DNA of 50,973 nt from an uncultured Erysipelotrichaceae bacterium. GTDB lineage: Bacteria; Bacillota_I; Bacilli_A; RFN20; CAG-826. The translations under genes were made by a program, and so were the position numbers. The stretch lies in contig CADCLZ010000002.1 of NCBI GenBank assembly GCA_902802365.1, forward strand, positions 1-50,973. Reading direction: 5' to 3'. The notes beneath the pieces were generated by a model that ran no database searches, was not told where the DNA came from, and saw nothing but the letters and a program-made list of their open reading frames with translations. Positions 9,150 through 50,973 of the stretch are shown here, piece after piece; position 1 is the stretch's first letter, and each line of letters opens with the position of its first letter.

Positions 9150-9151
9150 AC

Positions 9152-9454
9152 ATGAATCAGATGCAACAAATGCTCATGCAAGCCCAGAAGATGCAGCGTG
9201 AGCTCCAAAAGGCCCAAGCGGCGTTGGCGGAGAAAGAATTCAAATTCAGCAAGAACGGCATGGTCGAAGTGACCGTCCTCGGCTCGATGGAGATCAAGGA
9301 AATCAAAATCGACAAGGATGCCCTCGATCCCGAGAATGCGGAGATGCTCGAAGAGGCGATCCGCTTGGCGATCAATGAAGCCTCCGCGACCATCGCCGAG
9401 GAAAAGGCCAAAATCGAAGAGCAAATCACCGGCAGCAGCCGCGGACTATTCTGA
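9152..9454 (+). CDS. ybaB: YbaB/EbfC nucleoid-associated DNA-binding protein
   Basis: A 100-aa protein starting MNQMQQMLMQAQKMQRELQKAQ..., conserved in position between dnaX and recR. Confidence 0.9.
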   Translation: MNQMQQMLMQAQKMQRELQKAQAALAEKEFKFSKNGMVEVTVLGSMEIKEIKIDKDALDPENAEMLEEAIRLAINEASATIAEEKAKIEEQITGSSRGLF

Positions 9455-10050
9455 TGAAAGATCTCGCCACCTTAACCACCCTCATCGATTCCTTCAGCAA
9501 GCTCCCCGGCGTCGGCGCGAAAACCGCCGAACGGATGGCTTACGCGGTTTTGGAGATGGATCAGGAGGACGCTTTGCAGTTCGCCGAAGCGATCAAAAAC
9601 GCCAAGAAGCTGGTCCATAAATGCCCGGTTTGCGGTTTATACGCCGAGAAGGACGTCTGTGACGTCTGCCTCGACCCAACCCGCGATCATACGACCTGCG
9701 TCGTGATCTCTTATCCGAAGGATGCCCTCGCTTTTGAGCGCCTCAACGAATTCCATGGCGTCTATCATGTCCTCGGGGGCGTGATCGCGCCCAGCAAGGG
9801 CTATGGGGCCGCCGAACTCGATATCGACCATTTATTGGAACGGATCGCTAATGAGGGGATCAAGGAGATCATCCTCGCCACCAATCCGACCTTAGAAGGC
9901 GAAACCACCGCCTTATTCATCGCCAAACTCCTCGAAGGGAAGCCGGTGACCGTCACGCGGTTAGGCTATGGTCTGCCGATGGGCGCCAGCTTGGATTACG
10001 CCGATTCTTTGACCCTTGAAAAAGCGTTGGAGGGAAGGAGAAAACTATGA
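9454..10050 (+). CDS. recR: Recombination protein RecR
   Basis: HhH segment LPGVGAKTAERMA, zinc finger CPVCGLY...CDVC, and a Toprim segment EIILATNPTLEGETTA. Confidence 0.95.
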   Translation: MKDLATLTTLIDSFSKLPGVGAKTAERMAYAVLEMDQEDALQFAEAIKNAKKLVHKCPVCGLYAEKDVCDVCLDPTRDHTTCVVISYPKDALAFERLNEFHGVYHVLGGVIAPSKGYGAAELDIDHLLERIANEGIKEIILATNPTLEGETTALFIAKLLEGKPVTVTRLGYGLPMGASLDYADSLTLEKALEGRRKL

Positions 10051-10667
10051 GCCTATTCATCACCTTTGAAGGCGGGGAAGGATCGGGGAAATCCTCGGTC
10101 ATGAAGATCGTCGCCGAACGCTTGGAGAAAGATGGCTATTCCATCGTCACTTCCCGTGAGCCCGGCGGAACGCCAATCGCCGAAGAGATCCGCGATGTCA
10201 TCCTCGATAAAAAGAACACCGCGATGGATCCGCGCACCGAAGCTTTGCTTTACGCGGCTTCAAGAAGGCAGCACCTCGTCGAGAAAGTCTGGCCCGCCCT
10301 CAAAGAGGGCAAGCTCGTCTTATGCGACCGCTATCTCGATAGCTCTTTGGCCTATCAAGGCGGGGCGCGGCATTTAGGGATCGATGAAGTCCTCTCCATC
10401 AATCTCTTCGCCACCGAAGGAAGCTATCCCGACCTCACTTTGCTTTTCGACATCGAGCCCGAACTGGGCTTAAAGCGCATCGCCGCCAACAAAGGCCGCG
10501 AGGTCAACCGCCTCGATTTGGAGAAACTCAGCTTCCACCACGCGGTCCGCGATGCTTTCCATACCCTTGCCAAACGCTACCCCGACCGCTACGTCGTGAT
10601 CGATGCCAGCCAAAATCTGGATGCGGTCGTCGAGGATGCTTATTCCGCGATCAAAAGCCGCCTATGA
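10047..10667 (+). CDS. tmk: Thymidylate kinase
   Basis: P-loop FITFEGGEGSGKSS and the DRY motif (CDRYLDSSLAYQG). Confidence 0.95.
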   Translation: MSLFITFEGGEGSGKSSVMKIVAERLEKDGYSIVTSREPGGTPIAEEIRDVILDKKNTAMDPRTEALLYAASRRQHLVEKVWPALKEGKLVLCDRYLDSSLAYQGGARHLGIDEVLSINLFATEGSYPDLTLLFDIEPELGLKRIAANKGREVNRLDLEKLSFHHAVRDAFHTLAKRYPDRYVVIDASQNLDAVVEDAYSAIKSRL

Positions 10668-11653
10668 GAATCAAAGGATACGTCGAGAATAAACAGCCGA
10701 TCCTTTATCGGACGTTTTCCGGCGCCCTCGAAAAAGGGGTGGTCACCCACTCTTATCTCCTTTTAGGCGAAGCGGGCATCCCGTTGAAAGAAGTCGCCCT
10801 CTATTTGGCGAAATCCTTGCTTTGCGATCACCCCCATCCGCTTGCGGATGAAGAATGCGTCTATTGCCAAAGGATCGAAAACGGGGACTATCCCGATTTG
10901 GTGATCCTCGATGGCGAAAACCAATCGATTAAAAAAGATGACGTCCTCGATTTGGTCAGCGATTTCCAAAAGACCCCATTAGAAAAGAAGGGGATCATGA
11001 TCTATATCGTGAACCTCGTCGAGAATATGACCGTCGAAGCGGTCAACTCTTTGCTCAAGTTCCTGGAGGAGCCGACCCCGAACACCTATGCGATCCTGAC
11101 CAGCCAAAACGAGGCCAAGGTCCTCCCGACCATCGTCTCGCGCTGCCAAAGCATCCGGCTGCGCCTTTCCCCGATCTACGAAGTCATCCAGGAAGCGATT
11201 GAGCTTGGGGTCGCCCAAGATGACGCTGAGATCCTCGCCAATTTCTATAACGATGGGTCGCTGGTGAAAGAACAGGCGCAAAACGCCGCTTATCAAAGCG
11301 CCAAGAAAAGCGCGGATGCCTTCTTCGATGCCTTAAACCAGGGCTTCGATTATGGCCGCTACATCATGGAAAAGGCCATCACCCCCGTCATCAGCGCCCG
11401 CGAAGCCGGAAAAAGCGGAGCGCGTTTCTTCTTCGATGTCCTCGTTTTGTTTTTCCAGGATATCTGCCGAAAGAAAGTTGGGGATGAGATTAAACTCACA
11501 TCGTATGCTAAACTAATCGACGACCTCGCGAACAAATTGCCGCATCCTGAGCAGTCTCTGCTCAAGATCATGACCGCGCGGGGCGACATTGACCGGAATG
11601 TTAACATGGGTCTATTGCTGATCCATGTTGCCAATATCATCACCAAGGAGTGA
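10664..11653 (+). CDS. holB: DNA polymerase III delta-prime subunit
   Basis: AAA+-like clamp-loader fold with SRCQSI, and the conserved tmk-holB-ricT position. Confidence 0.85.
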   Translation: MRIKGYVENKQPILYRTFSGALEKGVVTHSYLLLGEAGIPLKEVALYLAKSLLCDHPHPLADEECVYCQRIENGDYPDLVILDGENQSIKKDDVLDLVSDFQKTPLEKKGIMIYIVNLVENMTVEAVNSLLKFLEEPTPNTYAILTSQNEAKVLPTIVSRCQSIRLRLSPIYEVIQEAIELGVAQDDAEILANFYNDGSLVKEQAQNAAYQSAKKSADAFFDALNQGFDYGRYIMEKAITPVISAREAGKSGARFFFDVLVLFFQDICRKKVGDEIKLTSYAKLIDDLANKLPHPEQSLLKIMTARGDIDRNVNMGLLLIHVANIITKE

Positions 11654-12809: not shown

Positions 12810-13666
12810 ACCCGCGTGAGCTAAATTTCTCAGGGAACGCCCCGTTGCTCTATTTGATCGCCACCCCAATCGGGAATCTTGGCGAGCTTTCCCCGCGGGC
12901 GCTCAAGGTGATTGAGGAGATGGATTTCATCGCCGCTGAAGATACCCGCCACTCTGGCGAGCTCCTCGCCGGTTTCGGCCTGAAGAAAGCGATGATCTCC
13001 TGCCATGAGCATAACGAAGAAGAAGCCGCTTCGAAGATCATCGCCTTGCTTAAACAAGGAAAGAAGGTTGCCTATATGTCCGATGCCGGTTATCCAGCGA
13101 TTTCCGATCCTGGTGAGCGGCTGGTCCGCCGCGCGGTCAAAGAAGGCATCAAGGTCACGACCGTTTCCGGCGCCAACGCCGCCTTGAACGCTTTGGCTTC
13201 CTCGGGCTTAGCGAGCCGCCACTTCTATTTCCACGGCTTTTTGCCGGTGAAAGATGGCGACCGGAAAAAAGAGCTCTCCGCGCTTCTTCGCCATGAAGAA
13301 ACCCTCATCTTCTACGAAGCCCCCCACCGCATTGGAAAGACCCTGCGCGATCTTTATGAGGCGTTTGGGGACCGCAAGGCCACTCTTGCCCGGGAATTGA
13401 CCAAAACCCATGAAGAATTCATCCGCGGGAGCCTCCAAGAACTCTGCGCTCTTGATCCGGAAACCCTAAAAGGCGAGATGGTCATCGTGGTTGAGGGCTG
13501 CCAAGACAAGGGCCCAACCCTCAGCGAAGAAGAGATTCTCCAAGCGATGCAGGAAAAGATCGCCTCCGGAGCGAAAGCCAAAGACGCGGCGAAGGAAATC
13601 GCCGAGGAGCATGGCTTATCGAAGAATAAAATCTACGCCTTATATCTTTCTAAGAAAGAAGCTTAA
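12806..13666 (+). CDS. rsmI: 16S rRNA (cytidine1402-2'-O)-methyltransferase
   Basis: LYLIATPIGNLGELSPRAL...IAAEDTR...SDAGYPAISDPG is the tetrapyrrole-methylase-fold RsmI signature. ATGA overlap with ricT. Confidence 0.93.
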   Translation: MNPRELNFSGNAPLLYLIATPIGNLGELSPRALKVIEEMDFIAAEDTRHSGELLAGFGLKKAMISCHEHNEEEAASKIIALLKQGKKVAYMSDAGYPAISDPGERLVRRAVKEGIKVTTVSGANAALNALASSGLASRHFYFHGFLPVKDGDRKKELSALLRHEETLIFYEAPHRIGKTLRDLYEAFGDRKATLARELTKTHEEFIRGSLQELCALDPETLKGEMVIVVEGCQDKGPTLSEEEILQAMQEKIASGAKAKDAAKEIAEEHGLSKNKIYALYLSKKEA

Positions 13667-21455: not shown

Positions 21456-22058
21456 TTAAATGTAGGATTCAACGACAACCTTGATGGCTAAGCCGAGCAA
21501 AACCAATCCGCCGATGATGTCGGCGATCTCGTATTTGCCGCGGAATAGTTTCTGAATCCACTTGCCGCCGAACAACCCGACGAGGGAAACCAAGAAAGAC
21601 ACCAAGGTGATGATACCGAAGCAAATATAAATCTGATAATCGAGGCCAGCGGCGGCTTCGATTTCCAAGGTAGAACGGATGGCGATACCCACCGCAAAAG
21701 CGTCGATGGAATCCGCAACGCCTTGAAGAAGCACCGAACCAACCGTGAAGTTTTTGGGTTTGCTGGTCTCCGGTTTCACCAAGGCGCGGATGCCGTCGAA
21801 GATCATCTTGCCGCCAATCAAGACCAATAAACCAAACGCCACCCAGTGGTCGATGTCCTTGATGTACTCATAGAAGGTCTCGCCGAGCAAAAAACCAATC
21901 AGCGGGAACAGGCCTTGGAGAACACCGAAGACGCCGGCGATGAAAAACGCCTTCCGTTTATTGAGGTCTTGGAAAGTCAGCCCGTCAGCGATGGAAAGCG
22001 CGAGGCAATCCATCGATAATCCGAGGCCTAAAAGGGATGCGGTTAAGAGCCACCCCAC
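21456..22058 (-). CDS. mntP: Manganese efflux pump MntP
   Basis: A six-TM, 200-aa protein with the duplicated motifs LSMDCLALSIADG and DSIDAFAVGIA. GTG start overlaps the aguB stop by 1 nt. Confidence 0.85.
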   Translation of the reverse strand: MGWLLTASLLGLGLSMDCLALSIADGLTFQDLNKRKAFFIAGVFGVLQGLFPLIGFLLGETFYEYIKDIDHWVAFGLLVLIGGKMIFDGIRALVKPETSKPKNFTVGSVLLQGVADSIDAFAVGIAIRSTLEIEAAAGLDYQIYICFGIITLVSFLVSLVGLFGGKWIQKLFRGKYEIADIIGGLVLLGLAIKVVVESYI

Positions 22059-22924
22059 TATTTATCTTCCCCCGAGAATTTGAGAATATCCCCGTAAAGA
22101 TCCACTCTTCTATCGCGAAATACGCCCCAATCGACGCGTTCTTTGTTGATGGTTTCTAGGTCGAAGGAAGCGAGCAGGATGTCCTCGTCTTCCCTACCAA
22201 GTTCAGCGACTTTTTCGCCATGCTGATCGGCAATGAAGCTGGAGCCAAAGAACTTCATCGAGCTCTTTCCTGCCTTTTCAACGCCGACGCGGTTGGAAGC
22301 CAATAACGGCATGATGTTGGCCGCCGCATGGCCGCGCATCGTATTCTGCCAATGGACCTTGGAGTCCTTCGGGAGGATCGGTTCGGAGCCGATCGCGCTC
22401 GGGTAAAGGAGAATCTCCGCCCCATGGAGGGCCATGATCCTCGCGGCTTCCGGAAACCATTGATCCCAGCAAATCGCGCAACCAACCATCCCGGCCGCGG
22501 TCTTGAAGACCTTGAAGCCGGTATCGCCAGGGCTGAAATAGAATTTCTCTTCGTAGCATTCCCCGGTCGGGATATGGCTCTTCCGATAAATCCCCAGGAT
22601 CGTGCCATCGGCATCGATCATCGCCAGAGAATTGAAGTAAGCCGGACCGCTCTTCTCAAAGAAAGAAAGCGGAAGGACGATATGGTATTTCTTGGCCATT
22701 TCTTGAAAATGGCGGAGGGTTTTGGAATCTTTGGCGTTTTCCGCGAGGGCAAACTTGTCATAGTCTTCGACTTGGCAGAAATAAAGATTCTCGAACAGCT
22801 CCGGCAAAAGCAGCAAAGCGGCGCTCTCCTTGGCGGCTTTCTCGATCATCCGATCGGCTTTTTCGATGTTATCCTCGTAAACGGCGCTCATGGAGAACTG
22901 GGCCAACGCGAATTTTCTTTCCAT
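22058..22924 (-). CDS. aguB: N-carbamoylputrescine amidase (nitrilase-superfamily C-N hydrolase)
   Basis: LLLPELF...YRKSHIP...GCAICWDQWFPEAAR gives the Glu/Lys/Cys catalytic triad context typical of AguB. It lies directly downstream of the agmatine deiminase domain. Confidence 0.85.
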   Translation of the reverse strand: MERKFALAQFSMSAVYEDNIEKADRMIEKAAKESAALLLLPELFENLYFCQVEDYDKFALAENAKDSKTLRHFQEMAKKYHIVLPLSFFEKSGPAYFNSLAMIDADGTILGIYRKSHIPTGECYEEKFYFSPGDTGFKVFKTAAGMVGCAICWDQWFPEAARIMALHGAEILLYPSAIGSEPILPKDSKVHWQNTMRGHAAANIMPLLASNRVGVEKAGKSSMKFFGSSFIADQHGEKVAELGREDEDILLASFDLETINKERVDWGVFRDRRVDLYGDILKFSGEDK

Positions 22925-25530
22925 TATTCTTCCTCCGGGACTTGCATGGTGATGCAGTGGATGTTCCCGCCGCCCAATAGGATCTCGCGGGTATAGATTT
23001 GATGGATCTTCTTCTCAGGGAAGAGGGCTTCCATCTGCTCATAAGCGAGCTTATCTTCCTTCACGCCAAAGGCGGGGAGGATGACGAAGTCCTTTCCTTG
23101 ATAGAAGTTGACGTAACTGGCCGCCAAGCGGCTGCTTTCCTTGCGTTCCTTAGCTTCATAATGGCCTTTATGGATCGTCTTCGATTCTTCTTTGGTCGAA
23201 TAAAGGGCGGGGGAAGGAACAAGGATCTTATGGATTTCAAACGGCCTTCCTTTGGCATCGGTCGTTTTCTTCAACGCCCGATAGGTCGCTTGACAGTATT
23301 TGTATTGGGGGTCGTCTTTGTCTTTCGTCCAGGCCAAGCAGATGACACCCGGCCGCACGAAAGCGACCATATTATCGATGTGCTCATTCGTCTCGTCGAG
23401 ATAGATTCCGTGCGGAACCCAAACGACTTTTTCGACGCCGAGATAGGTTTTTAAGGTTTCCTCAATCTCCTCTTTGCTGAGGGTGGGGTTGCGGCCAGAG
23501 GAGAGCAAGCAGGCTTCGGTGACGATGCAGGTCCCTTCGCCGTCAACGGCGATCGAACCGCCTTCTAAGACGAAGTCCGAAAGCGAATAGGAAACGTATT
23601 TATAACGCTTGGCGAACACCGCGCCGAGGCGGTCGTCGTCTTTGTAGTTGCGGTAAAGGCCGTCCACTTCGCCGCCCCAAGCGTTAAAACGGAAGTCGAC
23701 CGCGCGGACCGTTTTGCCTTTTTTGACGAAAAGGGCCATGTTGTCCCGCGCCCAAGCGTCGTTGTAGCGGATGTTGAGCAGCTCGAGGTTATTTATGCCA
23801 TCGAATAACGGGGCGACTTTCTCGAAAATCGTCGGATGGATGCCGACAATCACCTTTTCGTGCTCGGCGATCGCCTTGATGACTTCGCGGTAAGCGAGTT
23901 GGGCGGGAAGCCCTCCTTCGCGCCAGGTATCTTTGCGATAAGGCATCAGGATCACGGTTTCTTTGTGCTCCGAGCCTTCGAAAGGCATTCGGAAACCATC
24001 GGCCAACGGCACGGTTTTCCGGTTGGTGTAATAGTCTTCTAAACGTTTTTCGTATTTTGAGAAATAACGCCATTTCTCGTTATCGATGACGTTGTAGCCT
24101 TTCGGGTAACTGCGAAGGATGGTGATCCCCGTCGATTCATAACGCTTCACGCGGCGGATCAACTCTTTCGTCCAGACTTCGCCCGGGCAGATCAAAGGGA
24201 TGCCCGGCGGGTAGATCATGACCTGTTCTTTGGAGATCATGCCGTCGCATTCATCGATCGGCACGACTTTTCCCGTTGCGTGGAAGGCAACACGCGGCCG
24301 AACCAGCATATAGGGGAAGGTGGCGTCGAAACGATGCAGAGGATAAACGACGTTTTTGCGGTAATGCTTCTTTGAGATGTCTTTTAAGGCGGCGATCAAA
24401 GCGTCGACGTGCTTTTTCTTGGTCCCGATCGCGAAAATGCAAAGAACCGCGTAGGTTTCCGCTAATTCGAACTGGACGCCATACTCTTTTTTGGCCAGGT
24501 AATAAAGATCAAAGCCGGAGATATCCAGTTTATCGAGCTCAATAACGATGCGGGTTTCGTCATAATCAAACGCGCCGTGTTTCCGGAAGTGATCGCTGTC
24601 GGCGACCCGGAAGCCAGGGATCTTATTGATTCTTTCTTTGGCGCATTGGGCAAGCTGATACGCCTCTTTCTGGGCCTCTTTCCCTTTGGTGACCATGAAT
24701 TCCCTAGCAGCGTCCAAGGAAGCCATCAATAAGCTGGAGGGAGAAGTGGTATTCAAAATATTCAGGGATTTCTGGATCTTATAACGGGAAAACATCTCGG
24801 TATGGGCCAATAAGACCGAGCTTTGGGTCAAAGACCCACCGGTTTTGTGGAAGGAGACCGCGGCCATATCGGCCCCGGCATCCATCGCGGTGATTGGGGT
24901 GCAGCCGGAATGGAAATAGAAATGGGCGCCGTGGGCTTCGTCCACCAAAACGGCCATATGATGCTCGTGGGCGAATTCGACGACTTCCTTCAGATCGGTA
25001 ACCGCGCCAAAGTAAGTCGGATTGATGATCAAGACCGCTTTGGCGGAGGGGGAGCGGAGAATCGCCCGCTTGAAATCGTCCACCGACGGCTGATTCGCGA
25101 TCTCTAGTTGGCCATCGATCTCCGGCATCACGTATTCAGGAACCGCGCCGGAAAGGATCAAGGCGTTAATGACGGATTTATGGACGTTTCTTGGCAAAAT
25201 GATTTTTTCCCCGGCTCGGCAGGCAGTCATGATCATCGCGATGATTCCGCTCGAGGTGCCGTTGACCAAGAAGAACGCTTCGTCCGCGCCGCAGGCTTCG
25301 GCCATCAGCTCTTCGGCTTCGAGGATGACGCCGCGAGGGTTCGCGAGGTTATCCATGCCGATCGGCGCATTGACATCCAAAAGATAGGCTTGGCGCCCGA
25401 TCAATTTGGTGAAATCGTTCTCGATATTGCCCATATGATGTCCTGGGACATCAAAAGGCGAAACGTTTTCGCTCACGTATTTTTTCAACGCTTCGACAAA
25501 GGGGGCTCTAAGCTGATCGTTTTTTTCCAT
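22924..25530 (-). CDS. Bifunctional fusion, 868 aa: Orn/Lys/Arg decarboxylase (arginine decarboxylase type) plus agmatine deiminase
   Basis: The N-terminal ~490 aa has FDVPGHHMG and the PLP-lysine motif VSFHKTGGS. The C-terminal ~360 aa has GFRMPFEGSEHKETVILMPYRKDTW, NDAWARDN, HIDNMV, and ends GGGNIHCITMQ (AguA catalytic Cys). The reading frame is single and uninterrupted. Confidence 0.85.
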   Translation of the reverse strand: MEKNDQLRAPFVEALKKYVSENVSPFDVPGHHMGNIENDFTKLIGRQAYLLDVNAPIGMDNLANPRGVILEAEELMAEACGADEAFFLVNGTSSGIIAMIMTACRAGEKIILPRNVHKSVINALILSGAVPEYVMPEIDGQLEIANQPSVDDFKRAILRSPSAKAVLIINPTYFGAVTDLKEVVEFAHEHHMAVLVDEAHGAHFYFHSGCTPITAMDAGADMAAVSFHKTGGSLTQSSVLLAHTEMFSRYKIQKSLNILNTTSPSSLLMASLDAAREFMVTKGKEAQKEAYQLAQCAKERINKIPGFRVADSDHFRKHGAFDYDETRIVIELDKLDISGFDLYYLAKKEYGVQFELAETYAVLCIFAIGTKKKHVDALIAALKDISKKHYRKNVVYPLHRFDATFPYMLVRPRVAFHATGKVVPIDECDGMISKEQVMIYPPGIPLICPGEVWTKELIRRVKRYESTGITILRSYPKGYNVIDNEKWRYFSKYEKRLEDYYTNRKTVPLADGFRMPFEGSEHKETVILMPYRKDTWREGGLPAQLAYREVIKAIAEHEKVIVGIHPTIFEKVAPLFDGINNLELLNIRYNDAWARDNMALFVKKGKTVRAVDFRFNAWGGEVDGLYRNYKDDDRLGAVFAKRYKYVSYSLSDFVLEGGSIAVDGEGTCIVTEACLLSSGRNPTLSKEEIEETLKTYLGVEKVVWVPHGIYLDETNEHIDNMVAFVRPGVICLAWTKDKDDPQYKYCQATYRALKKTTDAKGRPFEIHKILVPSPALYSTKEESKTIHKGHYEAKERKESSRLAASYVNFYQGKDFVILPAFGVKEDKLAYEQMEALFPEKKIHQIYTREILLGGGNIHCITMQVPEEE

Positions 25531-43062: not shown

Positions 43063-44235
43063 TTATTTCTTGGCGAAAAGCCTTTGCTTGGCCTGATAAA
43101 GCTCCTGGTCGGCGCGACCAAGAACGTCCTCAAGGCGTTCTTTCGGATCGGAAACATAGGCACAGCCAGCGGATAGGGTGATGGGGAAATCGATTTCTTT
43201 GCTTTCTTCGACAAGTTTGGCGATCTTGGCGTTGACCTGCGCAAGCATGGCCTCCGGCTGGGCGACTTTCTTTTGATAGACGAGGACAAATTCGTCTCCG
43301 CCATAACGGGCGGCAAAGCCCATCGTCTCTTGGGCGGCTGCCATGAAGGCCTTGGCGACGAGCTGCAAGGTCTTATCGCCGATCAGATGGCCGTATTCGT
43401 CGTTGATCATCTTGAATTTGTCGATGTCGAAGAGCATCAGAACATAAGTTTTCTCTTCGCTGACTTGCTCGAGGAGATCGCTCACATATTCGTCGAGCCT
43501 CCGGCGGTTGTTAAGCCCCGTAAGAGCGTCGCTATAGATGCGCTCATCGTGCAAGAAAACCACCAGGACCGAGGCAAGGACGATGATGGAGCCCATTTCC
43601 ACCGGTTGCCCGTTGGCGACCGTGTTCTGCAGCAAAGTGGCAAGAATCATCAGCGGCCCAAAGCAAAGCAGGATGATGTCTTTCCTCCGGTTCCTCTTTG
43701 AGGAGCCTTTGAAGAAGTGATAGATGCAAGCCCCGAGGCAGACGATGACGTAGAGGGCGTCAAGGGCCATAGCCAGGTAGAAGAGGTTCCCGATTTGATA
43801 GATCCCGTCGGCGTCAAAGGCGAATATCCAGCCGGTCCACATCGAAACGAAGTCAAGGGTTCCGACGACCAGCATCGGCAGGCTGATGACGAAACGCGAC
43901 CACGTATGGTCGAGCGCGAGAGGGATATAGGATTCGCAAATGAACAAGCACCAGAAATAAACCAGCAGGTTAAAGGAGGCGTACGAGACGAAATTGTCGA
44001 TTTTGTTGGCCCAAACGCCCCAAGGCAGCAACCCGCCTTCGCCAAATCCCCAGACCACGTTGGCGAGGCAATAGCCGATATAGGAGATCATCAACCCGCG
44101 GAGGAAGGTCGCTTGGCTTTTGGTGACGAGGCTCCGGCTAAGCTGCAGCAGAAAGACCCCCGCGCATAAGGCGCAGATGATCCCGACGAGGATGTAGGAA
44201 TGGTAGTTCCAGGTTGTTTCCAGGGCCCTTGGCAT
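43063..44235 (-). CDS. Membrane-anchored diguanylate cyclase (about 7 TM plus GGDEF)
   Basis: DALTGLNNRR...FDIDKFKMINDEYGH...ARYGGDEFVLV. No RxxD I-site lies 5 residues upstream of GGDEF. Start at ATG 44235; the track start is TTG. Confidence 0.88.
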   Translation of the reverse strand: MPRALETTWNYHSYILVGIICALCAGVFLLQLSRSLVTKSQATFLRGLMISYIGYCLANVVWGFGEGGLLPWGVWANKIDNFVSYASFNLLVYFWCLFICESYIPLALDHTWSRFVISLPMLVVGTLDFVSMWTGWIFAFDADGIYQIGNLFYLAMALDALYVIVCLGACIYHFFKGSSKRNRRKDIILLCFGPLMILATLLQNTVANGQPVEMGSIIVLASVLVVFLHDERIYSDALTGLNNRRRLDEYVSDLLEQVSEEKTYVLMLFDIDKFKMINDEYGHLIGDKTLQLVAKAFMAAAQETMGFAARYGGDEFVLVYQKKVAQPEAMLAQVNAKIAKLVEESKEIDFPITLSAGCAYVSDPKERLEDVLGRADQELYQAKQRLFAKK

Positions 44236-44307
44236 AAAAACCAACCAAATGATAGCATGTTTGCGAGGTTTTCCGTAGGAAAGCCGACGAAATTATAGGG
44301 TTGTCGG

Positions 44308-44841
44308 CTAGCGATATCCGTGGATTTTCTTTTGCTTTTCCAAAATACCGGTCGCCATGATGCGATCGACCGCGATTCCGACCAATACGCCGGTCGCCAA
44401 AGAAATCAGCATCATGAATGGATAATAGAAGAACACGGCGGGGGAACCCATGAAGATCGCCCCGACGGCGACTTGGGCGAAGGAATGCATAATGCTCCCC
44501 AAAGTGGAGACGCCGACGACAGTCAGCATCCGTAAGACGTATTTTCCGAACACCATCACCAAAAGCGACGCCATCGCCCCGGCGAACGACATCCAGAAAC
44601 CCATCTGGAGGAAGCTGCCGCGGAGCAGCGCGACCACCAAAACCCTGGCGACGTTGATCAGCAACGCTTCGATGATCCCGAACTCATAGAGGACCAAGCA
44701 GATGACGATATTCGCAAAACCCGGCTTTAAGCCAGGAATCCAGGCGGAGGGGATAAAGCTTTCGGCGATGCCCAAAGCGATGGCCAAGGCCAACAGAATC
44801 GCCATCAAAGTCATTTTATGGAGATTGAACCGCTTGCTCAT
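44308..44841 (-). CDS. Gx transporter family membrane protein (PF07456-type, formerly 'heptaprenyl diphosphate synthase component I')
   Basis: A 177-aa, 5-TM protein with LKPGFANIVICLVLYEFG. It has the usual partnership with a NusG-domain-II gene (ATGA overlap). Confidence 0.65.
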   Translation of the reverse strand: MSKRFNLHKMTLMAILLALAIALGIAESFIPSAWIPGLKPGFANIVICLVLYEFGIIEALLINVARVLVVALLRGSFLQMGFWMSFAGAMASLLVMVFGKYVLRMLTVVGVSTLGSIMHSFAQVAVGAIFMGSPAVFFYYPFMMLISLATGVLVGIAVDRIMATGILEKQKKIHGYR

Positions 44842-45278
44842 CCGATCACGATCTCCCCGTTGGGTTCGCCAACGATTTCAATGACGACTTGGTTATAGGC
44901 GCAGACGATCGGGAGGCCCGGCTCGCTGATATAGCCGCGGTGCTCGCAATCATGCCCCGGGCAATGCCCATCCACGACGCGGATCGCGTTAAATTTGACG
45001 CCGATCTCCATTTAGGTCACCGCCCCTTGGATGGTGAAAACCCGTTCTTCTTTCGGCTCTAAGGATAGATCTAGTTCTTCAAGAAACATCCCGGCCACCG
45101 AGATCTGGGCGATATGCCCTTGGTTCGGTTTGGGGAGCGCCACCCAGATCGAAAGCCCGGCCGCCGCGATCGAAAAGGCGCCGATCACGATGAAATCCCA
45201 GAGGTGCTTCAGCCAAAAAGAGGGCTTCTTGGTCGCTTCTTCGGGGACTTTCTTTTCCAAGGTTTCGGGTTCGTTCAT
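44838..45278 (-). pseudogene. NusG-domain-II (DUF1312) membrane-anchored protein split by an in-frame TAA at 45012-45014
   Basis: The 88-aa ORF ends ...ERVFTIQGAVT*. The next codon, in the same frame, is ATG 45011. It opens MEIGVKFNAIRVVDGHCPGHDCEHRGYISEPGLPIVCAYNQVVIEIVGEPNGEIVIG*, a 57-aa ORF below the track cutoff. Together they form one 146-aa DUF1312-like protein. Confidence 0.7.
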
Positions 45279-46339
45279 TGGAAGACGACTCCTTGGTTTT
45301 TGACGATTTCGCCATCGTTATAGAAAACATATGAGACGTTGTATTTGCTGGCTAAGGCGTTCACCTTGTCGAGGTTCTCGTTCACGCCCATCAAGATGAA
45401 GGCGGTGGAAAGCACGTCCAAAACCCCGGCGTCTTGACCCAATAGGGTCACGCCGAAATAATCCACGTGGGCGCTCCCGGTGAACGGGTTGATGATATGC
45501 GAATAGGAAACCCCGCCGATATCCGCTTCCTGGGCATCGATGCCCGAGGTGCCGACGCAGACGTTTTTGAGTTTCATCTTTTGGCTGATCCCGCGAATAT
45601 TGACCGTCCAAGCGCCGCCGTCGAGGTCTTGTTCGCCAAGCAGGATGCTGCTGGTCCCGGCATCGACATAATAAGCGGTGAAGCCGTTATCCTTGATCCA
45701 TTCCCAGGCTTTCTGGGCGGCGTAGCCTTTGGCGATCGCGCCTAAATCGATCTTCGCTGTTCCGATGCGGCGGACGGTATATTTGCCCTCTTCTTCCTTA
45801 AGGACCAAGTCGGAATTCTCCATCTCGCTCAGGCAGGCGCGGATCTCTTCCTGGCTCGGAATGCTGGGGTCAGGGGTCTTCGAACCCGAAGGGGTAACGC
45901 GTTCGGGATGGAGATGGTCTTTCCATAGATCGGAGAGGTTCCCGATCAAGGGATTCACATAACCATAGGACTCTTTTTCCATCTGGAGTGAGAAGCTGAG
46001 CAGATCATAAAGCTCTTTCTCGATGGTGACGGCTTGGTTGGTTTGGTTGATATCGTAGACGTTCTTGTGGTTTGTCACCGACTGGGTGTTATCGGCCAAA
46101 GAGTCATAAAGCGAGAAGATCTTCCCGACTTCAAACTCCGGCTCACCAAGGGTTTCGTCGGCGGACCTAAGCGAAACCCGAATCCGGCTATTCATCGCAA
46201 AATAGTCGGCCTTATAGTCGTGGTAGGGGGTCTTCTGCTCCCCGCAGGCAAGCAAAAGAAAAACGACGGGGGCCACCCCGAAAAAGATGTGGCCTCCACG
46301 TTTCTTAGATAGTGGGAATGTGCTTCGTTCCGTCCTCAT
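45275..46339 (-). CDS. apbE: FAD:protein FMN transferase ApbE (lipoprotein)
   Basis: Lipobox VVFLLLACGE and ApbE motifs DLGAIAKGYAAQKA and GTSGI...SHIINP. Confidence 0.88.
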   Translation of the reverse strand: MRTERSTFPLSKKRGGHIFFGVAPVVFLLLACGEQKTPYHDYKADYFAMNSRIRVSLRSADETLGEPEFEVGKIFSLYDSLADNTQSVTNHKNVYDINQTNQAVTIEKELYDLLSFSLQMEKESYGYVNPLIGNLSDLWKDHLHPERVTPSGSKTPDPSIPSQEEIRACLSEMENSDLVLKEEEGKYTVRRIGTAKIDLGAIAKGYAAQKAWEWIKDNGFTAYYVDAGTSSILLGEQDLDGGAWTVNIRGISQKMKLKNVCVGTSGIDAQEADIGGVSYSHIINPFTGSAHVDYFGVTLLGQDAGVLDVLSTAFILMGVNENLDKVNALASKYNVSYVFYNDGEIVKNQGVVFQ

Positions 46340-46622
46340 CCGGATGATCCATCATATAGACGATGATCGGATCGTAGGTCCTTTCTCCCTTGCCGCCTTT
46401 GCACTTGCTGACTTTCGTCTCCTCGCCTTTGACCAAAGCTTCGGCCAAGGCGCGGCAGCCGGCATAGCCGCAGCCGCCGCAATTGGCGCCGGGCAATAGT
46501 TTTTCGACATCGTTGATGCGGTGGTCTTCCTTGACGGCGAGAAAGACGGCCGCCAGGGCAAGGCCCAATCCGAAGACGGCGCAGAGGCCGAGCATCAACA
46601 AGATTCCCCATAATACGTTCAT
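46305..46622 (-). CDS. RnfB-like N-terminal module only (TM helix plus CX2CX4C...C Fe-S domain); no ferredoxin domains
   Basis: MNVLWGILLMLGLCAVFGL..., then LLPGANCGGCGYAGCRALAEALVKGEETKVSKCKGG, which is the RnfB N-terminal signature. The protein ends after 105 aa with no CxxCxxCxxxCP motifs. Confidence 0.7.
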   Translation of the reverse strand: MNVLWGILLMLGLCAVFGLGLALAAVFLAVKEDHRINDVEKLLPGANCGGCGYAGCRALAEALVKGEETKVSKCKGGKGERTYDPIIVYMMDHPDEDGTKHIPTI

Positions 46623-46840
46623 TCTTTTTCCTCCTTCCCGTCTTCATCGCTTTTCTCGATGCCCCAGCGGATCGGGCAACCAGCTTTTTTGCAGCTGCCG
46701 CAGACTTCTTCGCTCGGTTCGAGGTTCTCGCAGCCCTTCGGAGCCGGCGTCCTCCGATAGAGGACGAAGCTCGTGACGAAGATGGCGAGCAAGACGACGA
46801 TGATGACGATGGTAAGCGTTATCGCTAATTCTTTGCTCAT
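46619..46840 (-). CDS. Cys-rich single-pass membrane micro-protein (73 aa) between rnfA and the rnfB-like gene
   Basis: ATGA overlaps on both sides. MSKELAITLTIVIIVVLLAIFVTSFVLY, then GCENLEPSEEVCGSCKKAGCPI (C-x11-C-x2-C-x5-C), then an acidic tail. The longer track ORF start (46960) lies inside rnfA. Confidence 0.55.
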   Translation of the reverse strand: MSKELAITLTIVIIVVLLAIFVTSFVLYRRTPAPKGCENLEPSEEVCGSCKKAGCPIRWGIEKSDEDGKEEKE

Positions 46841-47445
46841 GCACCGATCCCTTGGAAGCCCATGAAGGCGAGCGCCATAAGGGCGGCGGTGATCAGGGCG
46901 ATCGGAAGGCCTTTGAACGCCTTCGGGGTGTTGGCCGCTTCTAAGCGGGTGCGGATGCAAGCCATCAGCACGATGACAACCAAGAAGCCGACCGAGGTGC
47001 CGAGGGCATTGGCCATCGCGGTGCCGAAGTCCGCCGCCGCATAGGCGTAGGAAGCGCCTTTGGCGGTGTTCTCCTGCACGACGCCGAGGACCGCGCAGTT
47101 GGTGGTGATAAGCGGGAGATAGATGCCCAAAGCCTTATAAAGGCTCGGGGAGAATTTCTTGACGACGAGACCGACGACCTGGACCAAGGAAGCGATGACC
47201 AAGATATAGACGATCGTATCCATGAAGGTCAACTCGGCCGGCACCAAGATGAAGACGTAGATCGGCCAAGAGACCAAGGCCGCCAAAACGATGACGAAGG
47301 TGACGGCGATGCCCATCGAGGCCGCGGATTTGACGCGGTTGGAGACGCCGACGAAGCTGCAGATGCCATAGAAACGGCTGAGCACGACGTTATCGACCAA
47401 GAAGGACGAGACGATCGCGAGCAAGAAGGTCACGAAGTAGTTCAT
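46837..47445 (-). CDS. rnfA: Rnf complex subunit A
   Basis: A 202-aa, 6-TM protein starting MNYFVTFLLAIVSSFLVDNVVLSRFYGICSFVGVS, which is the RnfA/NqrE family pattern. Confidence 0.9.
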   Translation of the reverse strand: MNYFVTFLLAIVSSFLVDNVVLSRFYGICSFVGVSNRVKSAASMGIAVTFVIVLAALVSWPIYVFILVPAELTFMDTIVYILVIASLVQVVGLVVKKFSPSLYKALGIYLPLITTNCAVLGVVQENTAKGASYAYAAADFGTAMANALGTSVGFLVVIVLMACIRTRLEAANTPKAFKGLPIALITAALMALAFMGFQGIGA

Positions 47446-48203
47446 TATTTGTCACCTCCCACGGCGGCCTGCGCTTGTTGCGCTTTGAGGGCGGCCTGCC
47501 GTTTCTTTTCTTCCAAAGCTTTTGCTTTGGCAATCGCGGCCTTGTGGTTGTTGACCGCGGCGATGATCGCCATGATCACGCCGAGGGTGATGAAGCCGCC
47601 GGCGGGATTGGAGAACAGCGAGATCGAGAAGTCATAGGAGCCATCGACCGCCTTTAAGATCGGAAGATGGATGGCTTCGCCATTGACCTGAATGAAGGTG
47701 AAGATGTTGCCAAGGGTGAGCATCCCGGTGCCCAAGATCTCGCGGACGAGGCCGATGATGCAGAGGGCGAGGGTGAAGCCGACGCCGTTTCCAAGGCCAT
47801 CGAGCAACGAATCGCCGACGGTGTTCTTGTTGGCGAAGGCTTCCGCGCGGCCGAGAACGATGCAGTTGACGACCAATAAGGCGAGGAAGACGCCGAGGGA
47901 GCTATAGAGCTCCGGCAAGAAGGCTTCGGTCATCATCTTGGTGATGGTGACGAAGGTGGCGATGACGACGATGTAGCAGGGGATATGGACCTCATCGGGG
48001 ATGATCTTCCGAAGAGCGGAGATGATCACGTTCGAGAAGACGAGGACGAAGGTGAACAAGATGCCCATGCCAAGGCTGGCTTCGAAGGTCTTGGTGACCG
48101 CCAAAGCGGGGCAGGTGCCGAGCACCAACACAAAGAGCGGATTCTCTTGCCAGATCGGCTTGAGGAAGCTTTCTTTATGGAAATAACGTTTCTTTTCTTC
48201 CAT
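47445..48203 (-). CDS. rnfE: Rnf complex subunit E, with a roughly 35-aa Ala/Lys/Gln-rich C-terminal extension
   Basis: WQENPLFVLVLGTCPALAVT is the RnfE/NqrD signature. The C-terminus reads KAAIAKAKALEEKKRQAALKAQQAQAAVGGDK. Confidence 0.9.
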   Translation of the reverse strand: MEEKKRYFHKESFLKPIWQENPLFVLVLGTCPALAVTKTFEASLGMGILFTFVLVFSNVIISALRKIIPDEVHIPCYIVVIATFVTITKMMTEAFLPELYSSLGVFLALLVVNCIVLGRAEAFANKNTVGDSLLDGLGNGVGFTLALCIIGLVREILGTGMLTLGNIFTFIQVNGEAIHLPILKAVDGSYDFSISLFSNPAGGFITLGVIMAIIAAVNNHKAAIAKAKALEEKKRQAALKAQQAQAAVGGDK

Positions 48204-48205
48204 GA

Positions 48206-49627
48206 TCAGGCTCCTTTCTTGAGGTTGCTGTAATGTTCAGCGGCCTTCAGAGTCAATTGCTGCGAAGCGGAAGCGGAGATGGTCGCGTTGGCGGTCAGCT
48301 CCACGTCGCCGCTCGGATTGGCGTTGTAGTTGGCGACATAGGATTCCTCCCACTGCGGGCCGCGGCTCATCGTGTCGGTCAAGACCTGCATCTTGCCGAA
48401 CTTGACGGTTTCGGACTCATAGGAGAAGGAGACCAGATAGGTCGCATCGCCATGGGCCTCGAGGTATTGCTCCGGTTCGGAGAAATGGAGGGTCATGGAG
48501 CAGAGATAGACTTCGCCAAGCTCCGCGGAGGCTTCGTCAAAGACGGTCCAGTGCTCGACGAGCTCGCCGGTGCCGGTATTTTCAAACGGCTTATCGCGAT
48601 ACTGCGGGAGCAAGGCGCTGGTCACGATGCTCACGTCATCGATCTTGGTGGCGTCCGAAGTCGATTTCGCCGTGCTGAAGAGATTCTTGCTCTTCGCGGC
48701 GAGGTTATCCAAACCATTGGCCTGGTAGTGGGCCTTCGCTTCGTCGACCAAGGTGGTGTAGATGCCCGAGAAGTCGGCGGTGCTGACTTCACCGGTGGTG
48801 CCGTTTTCGACCAAGGTGTTCTGGAGGACGTAGGCCTTTTCGGCGAGGACGGGGTTCTCTTGATCGCCAGAGAGGCCGATCGCAAGGCCGAGCTTGCCAT
48901 CGTCTCCGCTATAGCGGAGAGAGTAGATCCTGGCGGCCTCGTTGAGGTTGCCGGCGTCGTTATAGAGCGGATAGTACTTCTTGAGGTAGGTGCCGCCATC
49001 GACGGAACGGTCATCCTTGTCGGCGTAGGTGTAGGTGGTGCCGAAGATCGTGCTGATCTCGATGGCGAAATCCTCGCTCACGCCGCCGGAGATGCCGGCG
49101 TACATGTCTTTGGCTTCCTTGACCATGTCGCGGAAGAGCCCGCAGCTAAGCGTCGCGCCCGTGCCCTTGTAGGCTTCGAGGTTGGCGTCGCTCGGATCGG
49201 CGGCGAAGGCATCGTAGTAAGCCTTGAAGGTGGTGTCATAACCCGGGGTCATCTCCTGCTCGACGATCGCGACCTTCGCGATGGAAGGATCGTCGCCGTC
49301 GCCGGTGATGCCGATCATCAGGTTATAGGAGGCGCGGGAGTTCTGACCTTCCGCGCGGATGATTTTGCCGAGCTCCTCGCTGCCTTCATAGGCAACGCGG
49401 TACTCTTTGACGTATTGGCCGGCCATCAGGGTGGCGTCAGAGACCTCGGTCAAAGTCGGGAAGACTTCTTTGAAAGCCGCCGACTGGGCTTGTTCCCGGC
49501 GTTCCTGGATGACGGGTCCCGTCAAGAGGTTGAGGCTGGTGATGAGGGCGGCGCTGACCACGCCGATCGCGGTCAAAACGCCGACGGTCTGGAGGTAATA
49601 CTTGATCGGTTTCTTCTCGAAGCTCAT
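48206..49627 (-). CDS. rnfG: Enlarged RnfG-like subunit (473 aa) built from three FMN-bind-like repeats
   Basis: N-terminal TM anchor. Repeat 1 carries a canonical flavinylation motif (YKGTGATLS, Thr159). The aligned positions read STADFS in repeat 2 and ANATIS in repeat 3. Position between rnfD and rnfE. Confidence 0.75.
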   Translation of the reverse strand: MSFEKKPIKYYLQTVGVLTAIGVVSAALITSLNLLTGPVIQERREQAQSAAFKEVFPTLTEVSDATLMAGQYVKEYRVAYEGSEELGKIIRAEGQNSRASYNLMIGITGDGDDPSIAKVAIVEQEMTPGYDTTFKAYYDAFAADPSDANLEAYKGTGATLSCGLFRDMVKEAKDMYAGISGGVSEDFAIEISTIFGTTYTYADKDDRSVDGGTYLKKYYPLYNDAGNLNEAARIYSLRYSGDDGKLGLAIGLSGDQENPVLAEKAYVLQNTLVENGTTGEVSTADFSGIYTTLVDEAKAHYQANGLDNLAAKSKNLFSTAKSTSDATKIDDVSIVTSALLPQYRDKPFENTGTGELVEHWTVFDEASAELGEVYLCSMTLHFSEPEQYLEAHGDATYLVSFSYESETVKFGKMQVLTDTMSRGPQWEESYVANYNANPSGDVELTANATISASASQQLTLKAAEHYSNLKKGA

Positions 49628-50721
49628 AACACACCTCCCAACAAAGCGATCTCAGCGACCGGGTTGGCTTTGCCATAAGCGGCCCAGAGAACGATGCCCG
49701 CGGCGACGAGGATGATCGCGCCATAGGCGATGAAGTGCCGCTTGTCGAAGCGGTTCTTCCATTTGAAATAATCGAGGGCGGGGGCGACCAAGTTGGCGAT
49801 CAAGATGCCATAGCCAACACCCTCGGGGGCGCCGGCGAAGAGGCGGATCAAAACCGCGGCGATCGCGCCGACCATGCCATAGTAGATCCTGCTCGGGGCG
49901 GTGATCGGCATCGTGACCGGATCGGTGATCATGAAGGCCAAGCCGTAGAGGAAGCCGCCGGCGAGCACGTGATAAAGCGTATAGGTGAGGGCATTGTCGG
50001 AAAGGAAGATGCCCGCGACGAGGATCAAGACGATGAAGGTGCCGGCATAGCTGGCCACCACGCGCCAATCGGCGACGCGGCGGATCAATAAATACGCCAG
50101 CCCGACCAAGATGGCGATCTTGCAGACCTCGCCCATCGCGCCTTGGGTGGTGCCGATGAGCAGGTGGAGAAGATCGGCGTCCCCGCCTTGGAGCGAGGTC
50201 GCCCCGGCGGTGATGCCTTCGGAGAGGTAATTGACGTATTGGCCGTTCATCTGGGAGGCAAAGCAGGCCTTGGCGAAGATGAAGCCGGTCGCGGCGGGGT
50301 TGAAGATGTTCTGACCAAAGCCGCCGAAGAGCAATTTGCCGACGATCATGCCGAACAATGCGCCGATCGGAAGGATGTAGAAGTACATCGCGCCTTCCTG
50401 AGCCGGGAACATCAAGCCATAGATGAGGCCGGAGATGATCGCGGAGAGGAGGTTATACATCTTGAAGCCGATGACTTTCGGCTGGAAGAGCATCTGGAAG
50501 GTCTTTTTGCCTTCTTTCGGTTTGAAGCGGATGAAGACGAAGATATATTCCGCCAAAAGCATGACCGCCACGGGGATGGCGAGATTGCGAAGGGCATAGA
50601 GGCGGAACGCGATATAGGAGAAGATCACGACCGGAGCCAAAGCGATGATGACATCGAGGAGCATCCAGGTCAGGTTGTCTTTGCGCCGGATATGGGGCGA
50701 ATTTTCAGTGATGAAGTTCAT
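49624..50721 (-). CDS. rnfD: Rnf complex subunit D
   Basis: A polytopic 365-aa protein starting SPHIRRKDNLTWMLLDVIIALAP, with a flavinylation-type motif GITAGATSLQ. SD GAAAGGAGG. Confidence 0.9.
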   Translation of the reverse strand: MNFITENSPHIRRKDNLTWMLLDVIIALAPVVIFSYIAFRLYALRNLAIPVAVMLLAEYIFVFIRFKPKEGKKTFQMLFQPKVIGFKMYNLLSAIISGLIYGLMFPAQEGAMYFYILPIGALFGMIVGKLLFGGFGQNIFNPAATGFIFAKACFASQMNGQYVNYLSEGITAGATSLQGGDADLLHLLIGTTQGAMGEVCKIAILVGLAYLLIRRVADWRVVASYAGTFIVLILVAGIFLSDNALTYTLYHVLAGGFLYGLAFMITDPVTMPITAPSRIYYGMVGAIAAVLIRLFAGAPEGVGYGILIANLVAPALDYFKWKNRFDKRHFIAYGAIILVAAGIVLWAAYGKANPVAEIALLGGVL

Positions 50722-50737
50722 TCTGGATCCTCCTTTC

Positions 50738-50973
50738 TCACGGCAGCCTCGCCACGATCTTCGCGCGGCGGACGTAATCGGTCACTTTGATCTTGCTGGT
50801 GCAGGAATAGGTGCAGAGGCCGCATTCCATGCAGGCGAGCGGGTTGAGTGCCTTGACCCGATCTTTGTCGACCGGCATGACCTTCATGGCATTCATGATG
50901 TCGACCGGACGGAGATGGACGGGGCAGCTGAGGACGCAGGAGCCGCAGCGGATGCAGGGCTCTTCCTCGTATT
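50738..50973 (-). CDS. rnfC: Rnf complex subunit C, C-terminal part (gene runs off the right edge)
   Basis: My translation: ...EEEPCIRCGSCVLSCPVHLRPVDIMNAMKVMPVDKDRVKALNPLACMECGLCTYSCTSKIKVTDYVRRAKIVARLP*. The two 4Fe-4S ferredoxin motifs are typical of the RnfC C-terminus. Confidence 0.88.
   Translation of the reverse strand, partial: YEEEPCIRCGSCVLSCPVHLRPVDIMNAMKVMPVDKDRVKALNPLACMECGLCTYSCTSKIKVTDYVRRAKIVARLP

Follow-up and report, generated by a model that had tools for sequence, protein, structure and literature searches.

The window analysed here is a stretch of 50,973 nt from an uncultured Erysipelotrichaceae bacterium (contig CADCLZ010000002.1, positions 1 to 50,973). On its minus strand lies a cluster of rnf genes which, judged from the sequence and by analogy to known complexes, probably codes for a working Rnf complex, an ion-translocating ferredoxin:NAD+ oxidoreductase, in a subtype with a minimal RnfB, together with its own genes for cofactor maturation. 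Rnf is the main energy-conserving, redox-balancing membrane enzyme in many gut and rumen anaerobes. The subtype combines a short RnfB with a small membrane protein carrying a Cys motif, encoded between rnfA and rnfB. This small protein and its linkage to the short RnfB are the only parts of the system for which we found no description. We assigned families to the window products by profile searches with Pfam and NCBIfam and delineated the following genes, given in their order on the minus strand (rnfC(partial)-D-G-E-A, small-protein gene, rnfB, apbE, NusG_II, PF07456 gene; aa, amino acids).

50738..50973, minus strand: 3′ end of rnfC only, as the window stops inside the gene; two C-terminal 4Fe-4S motifs, matched by TIGR01945 (positions 361-430) and Fer4 families
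49624..50721, minus strand: rnfD, 365 aa; PF03116, E 1.8e-67; flavinylation motif AGAT at residues 172-175
48206..49627, minus strand: expanded rnfG, 473 aa; FMN_bind PF04205 and TIGR01947, both weak and in module 1 only
47445..48203, minus strand: rnfE, 252 aa; PF02508, E 2e-62; NF009070/TIGR01948 above cutoff
46837..47445, minus strand: rnfA, 202 aa; PF02508, E 3e-52; TIGR01943, 229.1 bits
46619..46840, minus strand: small Cys-motif membrane protein, 73 aa (ATG at 46840); a conserved family with no Pfam or NCBIfam match above threshold
46305..46622, minus strand: minimal rnfB, 105 aa; PF04060, E 2.1e-13; TIGR01944 matched only at positions 8-78 of 190
45275..46339, minus strand: apbE (FAD:protein FMN transferase), 354 aa; PF02424, E 4.7e-44
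45012..45278, minus strand: N-terminal fragment of eetA/NusG_II, 88 aa, with a transmembrane anchor; ended by an in-frame TAA at 45012-45014
44838..45011, minus strand: C-terminal fragment of eetA/NusG_II, 57 aa, its ATG directly after the TAA; PF07009 assigned on the independent assemblies L001 and L002
44308..44841, minus strand: eetB homolog, 177 aa; PF07456 'Hpre_diP_synt_I' (Gx transporter family), E 2e-33

The profile searches thus assigned all families that had been named in a previous sequence-only reading of this DNA. That reading had also described ten co-directional reading frames, many of them joined by ATGA or other short overlaps, as a single translationally coupled unit. Coordinates and sequence bear out the common direction, the order and the overlaps; the number of frames is eleven, because the in-frame TAA splits NusG_II. 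Between rnfC and rnfD lies a gap of 16 nt, between rnfG and rnfE one of 2 nt, and rnfE and rnfA overlap by 1 nt. An ATGA overlap joins rnfD to rnfG, rnfA to the small-protein gene and the latter to rnfB, as well as apbE to NusG_II and NusG_II to the Gx transporter gene. Since the genes overlap or are separated by only 2-16 nt, with the 35-nt overlap of rnfB and apbE as the exception, the cluster is one tightly coupled unit, and this part of the reading was upheld. A scan for promoters and terminators yielded nothing clearly above background within the operon. The same contig has been assembled from rumen metagenomes at a length of 96.8 kb (L001) and contains the rest of rnfC. The closest named relatives of the window are metagenome-assembled genomes (MAGs) labelled 'Bacilli bacterium'.

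The 105-aa RnfB consists of a transmembrane helix, a single-[4Fe-4S] PF04060 domain (C48, C51, C56, C74) and a short conserved tail. The rnfB models matched over their first ~80 positions only, and Pfam detected no Fer4 family in the product. The C-terminal ferredoxin-type domain with 2-7 [4Fe-4S] clusters, which is typical of RnfB if not universal, is therefore lacking. A six-frame scan of the whole 51-kb window found no CxxCxxCxxxC[P] motif in any frame outside RnfC. The absence of the polyferredoxin part from the locus, as previously claimed, thus holds, without a remnant in any of the six frames. It does not follow that two small Cys-rich proteins take the place of RnfB, as had also been proposed; one of the two is RnfB itself, in the form of its N-terminal transmembrane and single-cluster domain. 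Homologous short RnfB proteins are 101-127 aa long, with three invariant Cys residues, the fourth (C74) present in at least 90% of the sequences, and a conserved tail, DPI..Y..HPDEDGTK. Residues 1-100 of 7zc6_B, 9eri_B and 8ahx_B, RnfB chains of solved structures, align with a profile of this family. In these structures, the aligned region comprises the transmembrane helix and a flexible one-cluster domain, which shuttles electrons to RnfA/E according to a 2025 review (PMC12174285).

We considered a truncation artefact as the origin of the short rnfB and rejected it, on the grounds that the family is conserved with a C-terminal tail of its own and that no ferredoxin motif occurs in any frame. 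An apparent frameshift of rnfB on L001 was likewise dismissed: a run of N at about 13250-13260, a scaffold gap and not biology, leads gene callers to an 86-aa product.

A single-cluster RnfB is already known from Thermotoga maritima. There, RnfB has 10.56 kDa and one predicted 4Fe-4S cluster (Kuhns et al. 2020, PMC7414866), and the purified Rnf complex transfers electrons from clostridial ferredoxin to NAD+ and is a Na+ pump (PMC7414866). Because this one-cluster RnfB accepts ferredoxin, the loss of the polyferredoxin domain alone is no argument for a different electron partner.

The 73-aa protein encoded directly upstream of rnfB starts with a transmembrane helix, followed by RRTPAPKGCE, the motif C47-x2-C50-x4-C55 and an acidic/basic tail. 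Sixteen members derived from Rnf loci share the helix, (K/R)TPxPKGCE and CxxCxxxxC, with P34, G36, C47, C50 and C55 invariant. As basic residues come after the transmembrane helix, the Cys motif is predicted to face the cytoplasm. The family includes 14 close clusters, and an exhaustive profile search yielded 162 clusters at 50% identity. Throughout the 150 listed hits the proteins are 40-101 aa long, and none of these hits is fused to RnfB or to another domain. No Pfam or NCBIfam family scored above threshold in searches at E up to 10, and no sequence relative was found in the PDB. The FeoB-associated Cys-rich membrane protein family PF12669 matched four of the 16 members below its gathering score (best E 0.031) and gave no match to the window protein itself. 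In the literature, we found no published description of the protein.

To place this arrangement among other Rnf systems, we scanned GTDB with a seed on the RnfB Cys motif, yielding 80 loci, and added separately fetched loci. Their open reading frames (ORFs) were annotated by searching with the window proteins, and the counts refer to loci in which rnfB follows rnfA. RnfB is preceded by a small ORF of 59-80 aa in 22 of 26 short-RnfB loci versus 0 of 48 long-RnfB loci, a split that overstates the statistical support because the loci are not phylogenetically independent. In the 48 loci with a long RnfB (260-694 aa), no gene lies between rnfA and rnfB and the median gap is 15 nt. Four short-RnfB loci lack the small ORF: L081 and L089, both from Thermotogota; L010, from one species with L009; and L077, where the contig ends within rnfB. 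The order rnfCDGEA-small gene-short rnfB recurs in uncultured Bacilli and Erysipelotrichaceae-type MAGs (about 20 distinct loci). Downstream, most of the 22 loci continue with apbE, an intact NusG_II gene (124-145 aa) and the PF07456 gene, and their RnfG has an ordinary length of 173-216 aa. Three of the four distant members of the small-protein family that we sampled (L097, L098, L100) are likewise encoded between rnfA and an rnfB of 101-108 aa with PF04060 only.

This synteny identifies the non-canonical arrangement as a conserved Rnf subtype and not as an artefact. What recurs is the pair of short RnfB and small protein; since most members possess an ordinary RnfG, the pair is not tied to the RnfG expansion, which had been counted as part of the same arrangement. 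Searching the literature on Rnf in Erysipelotrichaceae and on the Rnf complex in Acholeplasma, we found no description of the short-RnfB subtype. As a separate observation, the Rnf genes listed for Peloplasma aerotolerans (MDI6452236-38, -40-41, -43) omit two numbers of the series, of which one falls between the final pair of listed genes (PMC11122141). In this cultured Acholeplasmataceae isolate, the omission would leave room for a small ORF ahead of rnfB that went unannotated.

Based on its sequence and position, we infer that the small protein is an Rnf-linked accessory specific to the short-RnfB subtype. We further suggest, tentatively and at somewhat less than even confidence, that among uncultured Bacilli and Erysipelotrichaceae-type bacteria a distinct Rnf subtype is widespread in which this protein, so far without a description, is an obligatory seventh component. 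One possible role is that of an additional subunit beside the mini-RnfB which binds a metal or a cluster; the other is that of an Fe-S insertion factor similar to NqrM (DUF539), the small single-transmembrane, four-Cys protein with this function in the homologous Na+-NQR (PMC12174285). If the first form is true, the protein, paired with the one-cluster RnfB, would provide a second site of electron entry and stand in for the polyferredoxin domain. If the second is true, it would be the Rnf counterpart of NqrM and insert the intramembrane [2Fe-2S] cluster; to our knowledge, no dedicated insertion factor for this cluster has been established for Rnf. Searches with the 73-aa protein and 15 relatives at E up to 10 gave no NqrM/DUF539 match among the families listed (25 of 31 for Pfam). 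A likeness to the N-terminus of RnfB was detected by hhalign (88% probability at full length, with CxxCxxxxC in register), and one family member matches the rnfB model TIGR01944 (E 0.0044). We regard this likeness as suggestive only, a resemblance and not a membership. In either form, the small protein is a candidate for a new subunit or assembly factor that genome annotation overlooks.

The tight link of the small protein to the short RnfB and its absence from long-RnfB loci would also fit a cytoplasmic partner other than free ferredoxin. Here, a flavodoxin or a dedicated Fe-S flavoprotein would dock on the mini-RnfB and the small protein, the latter acting as a docking or electron-entry element in place of the polyferredoxin domain. 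The tail of the short RnfB, conserved and clade-specific and lacking in the Thermotoga form, would fit such a partner as well. A possible cytoplasmic redox partner is encoded in L018, a locus with short RnfB, small protein and a 490-aa RnfG: after the operon and its short rnfB follows, at 8651-11455, not the ApbE, EetA and EetB genes but a gene for a 934-aa protein with several 4Fe-4S motifs and a GGGPSG dinucleotide-binding motif. This neighbour is missing from the window and from most loci, however, and the 51-kb window contains no candidate partner gene. With the acceptance of ferredoxin by the T. maritima one-cluster RnfB as a further counterargument, we consider a non-ferredoxin partner unlikely.

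The remaining subunits point to a complete Rnf. All six subunit families are clustered in the canonical CDGEAB order according to Pfam and NCBIfam, counting the full RnfC from L001. This RnfC is 436 aa long and normal, with RnfC_N, Complex1_51K and SLBB domains. RnfA possesses the Cys pair for the intramembrane [2Fe-2S] cluster (Cys29 and Cys117), and Cys31 and Cys114 of RnfE are at the positions of the [2Fe-2S] ligands. The motifs for covalently bound flavin mononucleotide (FMN) are retained in RnfD (AGAT 172) and RnfG (TGAT 156).

Two side observations concern these subunits. RnfE ends in a Lys/Ala/Gln-rich extension of ~40 aa (window 47445-47560, minus strand; …KAKALEEKKRQAALKAQQAQAAVGGDK), and its homologs in the short-RnfB clade are mostly 242-281 aa long (209-219 in two loci), compared to ~190-230 aa in most long-RnfB loci. 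In L097, a distant member of the subtype, RnfD has 689 aa (L097 3131-5200) with a faint FMN_bind match and a DGAT motif near the C-terminus (residues 664-667), and two tandem ApbE genes (L097 7632-10241) encode 424 and 444 aa.

From these components, we propose the following electron path. By analogy to T. maritima RnfB, the one [4Fe-4S] cluster of RnfB, a 105-aa protein tethered to the membrane, would receive its electrons directly from reduced ferredoxin. Electrons would then pass via the intramembrane [2Fe-2S] cluster of RnfA/E to the FMN on RnfG module 1, from there to FMN and riboflavin on RnfD, and finally through the Fe-S clusters and FMN of RnfC to NAD+. This transfer would be coupled to the export of Na+ or H+, or run in reverse. 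ApbE would attach FMN to Thr159 of RnfG and Thr175 of RnfD at the outer face, using flavin adenine dinucleotide (FAD) exported by EetB with T and A components of the energy-coupling factor (ECF) type encoded elsewhere. The 73-aa protein, translationally coupled between rnfA and rnfB, would act as an Rnf accessory. We infer its cytoplasmic orientation and metal binding, and likewise the flavin status of RnfG.

ApbE is likely an extracytoplasmic lipoprotein, as its translated N-terminus ends in a lipobox-like LLLAC. Its presence with a NusG-II/Gx membrane pair in the Rnf operon had been pointed out before as unusual. The order and the families are confirmed; the combination itself is the known FmnB/ApbE-EetA-EetB module. 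Rivera-Lugo et al. 2023 (PMC9973259) showed that FAD is exported by way of EetB (PF07456), a subunit of the ECF-S type, and so reaches FmnB, the extracytoplasmic homolog of ApbE. The same study labels NusG_II (PF07009) as EetA in a supplementary table and reports colocalisation of eetB with eetA (3,328 genomes), apbE (2,169) and Rnf (572 Clostridia genomes). Since the trio is a known cofactor-supply module, it is no sign of a new function, which calls for caution in annotating an ApbE-NusG_II-'Gx transporter' set beside Rnf; it is a kit for FAD export and flavinylation. In the window, the genes for ApbE (PF02424) and EetB (PF07456) are close neighbours, and an intact EetA of ~125-145 aa is lacking. 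No ECF T or A component was found among the window ORFs scanned; in the relatives L007 and L008, CbiQ and two ABC_tran genes lie ~4.6 kb from the locus.

The lack of an intact EetA results from the TAA codon mentioned above. If the stop is read through, the resulting 146 aa match PF07009 over its whole length (E 1.8e-16), and the sister species L092 has GAA at this codon and an intact 145-aa NusG_II gene. The same split occurs in the independent assemblies L001 and L002, which show differences in single-nucleotide polymorphisms (SNPs). An alternative genetic code or a sequencing error was ruled out as an explanation by the independent assemblies, the GAA of the sister species and the normal reading of the other genes (table 11). 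By its sequence, EetA of this species has been inactivated, or divided in two, by a nonsense codon. Its loss is plausibly tolerated, because a Listeria ΔeetA mutant had no phenotype in extracellular electron transfer (PMC9973259).

The 473-aa RnfG is composed of an N-terminal transmembrane helix and three RnfG/FMN_bind-like modules (residues ~56-185, 186-320 and 321-473). A hidden Markov model (HMM) built from the clade's ordinary short RnfGs matches it three times, with independent E-values of 6e-34, 1e-3 and 9e-6 for modules 1, 2 and 3. With the same HMM the threefold match is clearer in the RnfGs of L018-L020; Pfam detects only module 1. Three sheet-plus-helix modules are also seen in the AlphaFold2 model (mean pLDDT 74), whose best Foldseek matches are the RnfG chains 7zc6_G and 8rb9_G, then NqrC. 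Conservation of modules 2 and 3 is similar to that of module 1. All modules are 55-91% identical to those of the relatives and free of frameshifts.

The tripling that was read from the sequence therefore applies to the fold, as judged from HMM and AlphaFold2, and not to the cofactor sites. The canonical flavinylation motif [S/T]GA[S/T] (PMC8238504) occurs only in module 1, as TGAT at residues 156-159. At the corresponding site of module 3, the window and its two closest relatives have ANAT (residues 446-449), compared to TGAT, SGAT or xGAT in several other relatives. Module 2 is without a flavinylation site in every member. Because only module 1 has a canonical site, a multi-flavin relay, as in the extended extracytoplasmic flavin relay suggested previously, is not supported for this genome. 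Modules 2 and 3 are conserved extracytoplasmic additions that, in this genome, probably carry no flavin, or one more at most. Enlargement of RnfG alone need not mean a multi-flavin wire. RnfGs with several domains are a class previously noted by Méheust et al. 2021 (PMC8238504).

According to a proposal by the same authors, RnfGs with several flavins provide a second route for electrons, to acceptors outside the cytosol (PMC8238504). The sequence-only reading had proposed, instead of a standard ferredoxin:NAD+ oxidoreductase, an Rnf-derived trans-membrane conduit. In such a conduit, electrons would leave by way of the three RnfG modules and reach an acceptor outside, similar to flavin-based extracellular electron transfer, and would not run in a closed ferredoxin:NAD+ loop. 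The constraint on the two extra extracytoplasmic modules would fit this, as would the xGAT site kept in module 3 of L012, L018-L020 and P0004-P0007 and the location of ApbE and EetB within the operon. ApbE and EetB, however, accompany ordinary Rnf operons in hundreds of genomes, and in most members of the subtype RnfG is of ordinary size (173-216 aa). Moreover, the window RnfG has the motif in module 1 only, and the long RnfG of the distant lineage L100 (L100 4223-5647; 474 aa) has a single xGAT site as well. RnfC is complete. With the precedent of T. maritima, an intact core and NAD+ side, a single RnfG site and a known FAD module, the conduit is unsupported, and we rate it as quite improbable. 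After the L100 operon comes a PPDK gene, not an ApbE gene.

The TAA in place of GAA in eetA and the change from TGAT/xGAT in relatives to ANAT in module 3 of the window and its two closest relatives might also indicate that the locus is decaying and the system being lost from the lineage. This we consider very unlikely: the core genes are intact, catalytic residues are kept, the junctions are still translationally coupled, and the RnfG modules retain their similarity to relatives without frameshifts. In addition, the same sequence was assembled with SNPs from several independent samples, and eetA is dispensable in Listeria.

The interpretation as a functional ferredoxin:NAD+ oxidoreductase of the minimal-RnfB subtype, which we favour, has to be weighed against several points. 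Members of the short-RnfB subtype are known from their genes alone, and because T. maritima has no small protein, the two minimal RnfB forms may work differently. Genes for ferredoxin, flavodoxin, PFOR or ECF T and A components were not found in the 51-kb window, so the electron donor and the exporter partners are assumed, not seen. Regarding the small protein, the Cys upstream of the invariant motif is replaced in L005, L006 and L013; as only three of its Cys residues are invariant, a conventional four-Cys cluster is not guaranteed. Its alignment to RnfB shrinks to the 10-residue Cys motif at 17% probability once the transmembrane helix is removed. The fourth distant family member sampled (P0200, 93 aa; L099 321-602) is outside of an Rnf context, so that the family is not exclusively Rnf-linked. 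Finally, RnfG modules 2 and 3, as conserved as module 1, are not accounted for by this interpretation. On its contig of 990 nt, P0200 has an aspS-like fragment on one side and a dCMP-deaminase-like gene on the other.

Outside of the Rnf locus, the gene next to the PF07456 gene encodes a membrane protein with a GGDEF domain (window 43063-44307, minus strand). It lies on the same strand as the operon after a spacer of ~63 nt, in which no terminator-like site was predicted, and it may be co-transcribed with the operon. Further away, at 22927-25530 on the minus strand, an 868-aa fusion protein combines an Orn/Lys/Arg decarboxylase (PF01276) with an agmatine deiminase-type domain (PF04371), and a CN_hydrolase gene follows immediately downstream (22058-22924). 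Together they look like a fused agmatine-route putrescine pathway.

Compared to the Rnf complexes of Clostridium tetanomorphum (7zc6) and Acetobacterium woodii (9eri), the window system has the same six subunit families in the same order, and its RnfG fold and N-terminal RnfB module align to theirs. The RnfBs of clostridia and acetogens, in contrast, are 274-333 aa long and accept ferredoxin with a C-terminal multi-[4Fe-4S] domain that the window RnfB lacks. Structural models now treat this domain as the ferredoxin acceptor; a conserved lineage with a one-cluster RnfB and a tiny Cys-motif partner would point to a simpler or differently built entry site.

Closer to the window system is the Rnf of T. 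maritima, with an RnfB made of a transmembrane helix and one predicted [4Fe-4S] domain, the order CDGEA-B and a complete RnfC. The RnfB length of 105 aa and the single cluster motif agree with the Thermotoga type (~95-105 aa), but rnfB does not directly follow rnfA. In the Thermotogota loci L081 and L089 (95-aa RnfB), rnfA and rnfB are separated by 9 nt without an intervening gene. Their RnfB lacks the DPI..Y..HPDEDGTK tail, RnfG is normal-sized and no ApbE, EetA or EetB follows.

Like the multi-flavinylated RnfGs (PMC8238504), the window RnfG contains several FMN_bind-like modules and is encoded in an Rnf cluster. It differs in that only one domain carries the canonical motif, the middle module has none in any relative and a cytochrome domain is absent. 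The accessory genes correspond to FmnB-EetA-EetB of Listeria monocytogenes, with PF02424, PF07009 and PF07456 adjacent and co-directional. Unlike the Listeria module, the window eetA is interrupted by a stop, and a gene for an FmnA-like ECF-T protein is not in the window.

For the small protein, the nearest parallel is NqrM, which is also small, has one N-terminal transmembrane helix followed by a cytoplasmic Cys cluster and is encoded in the operon of the homologous pump near apbE. The two differ in their Cys spacing and in their position, between rnfA and rnfB versus after apbE, and the small protein has no family match. In contrast to NqrM, it is tied to one subtype of its complex, the short-RnfB one, and not to Rnf in general.

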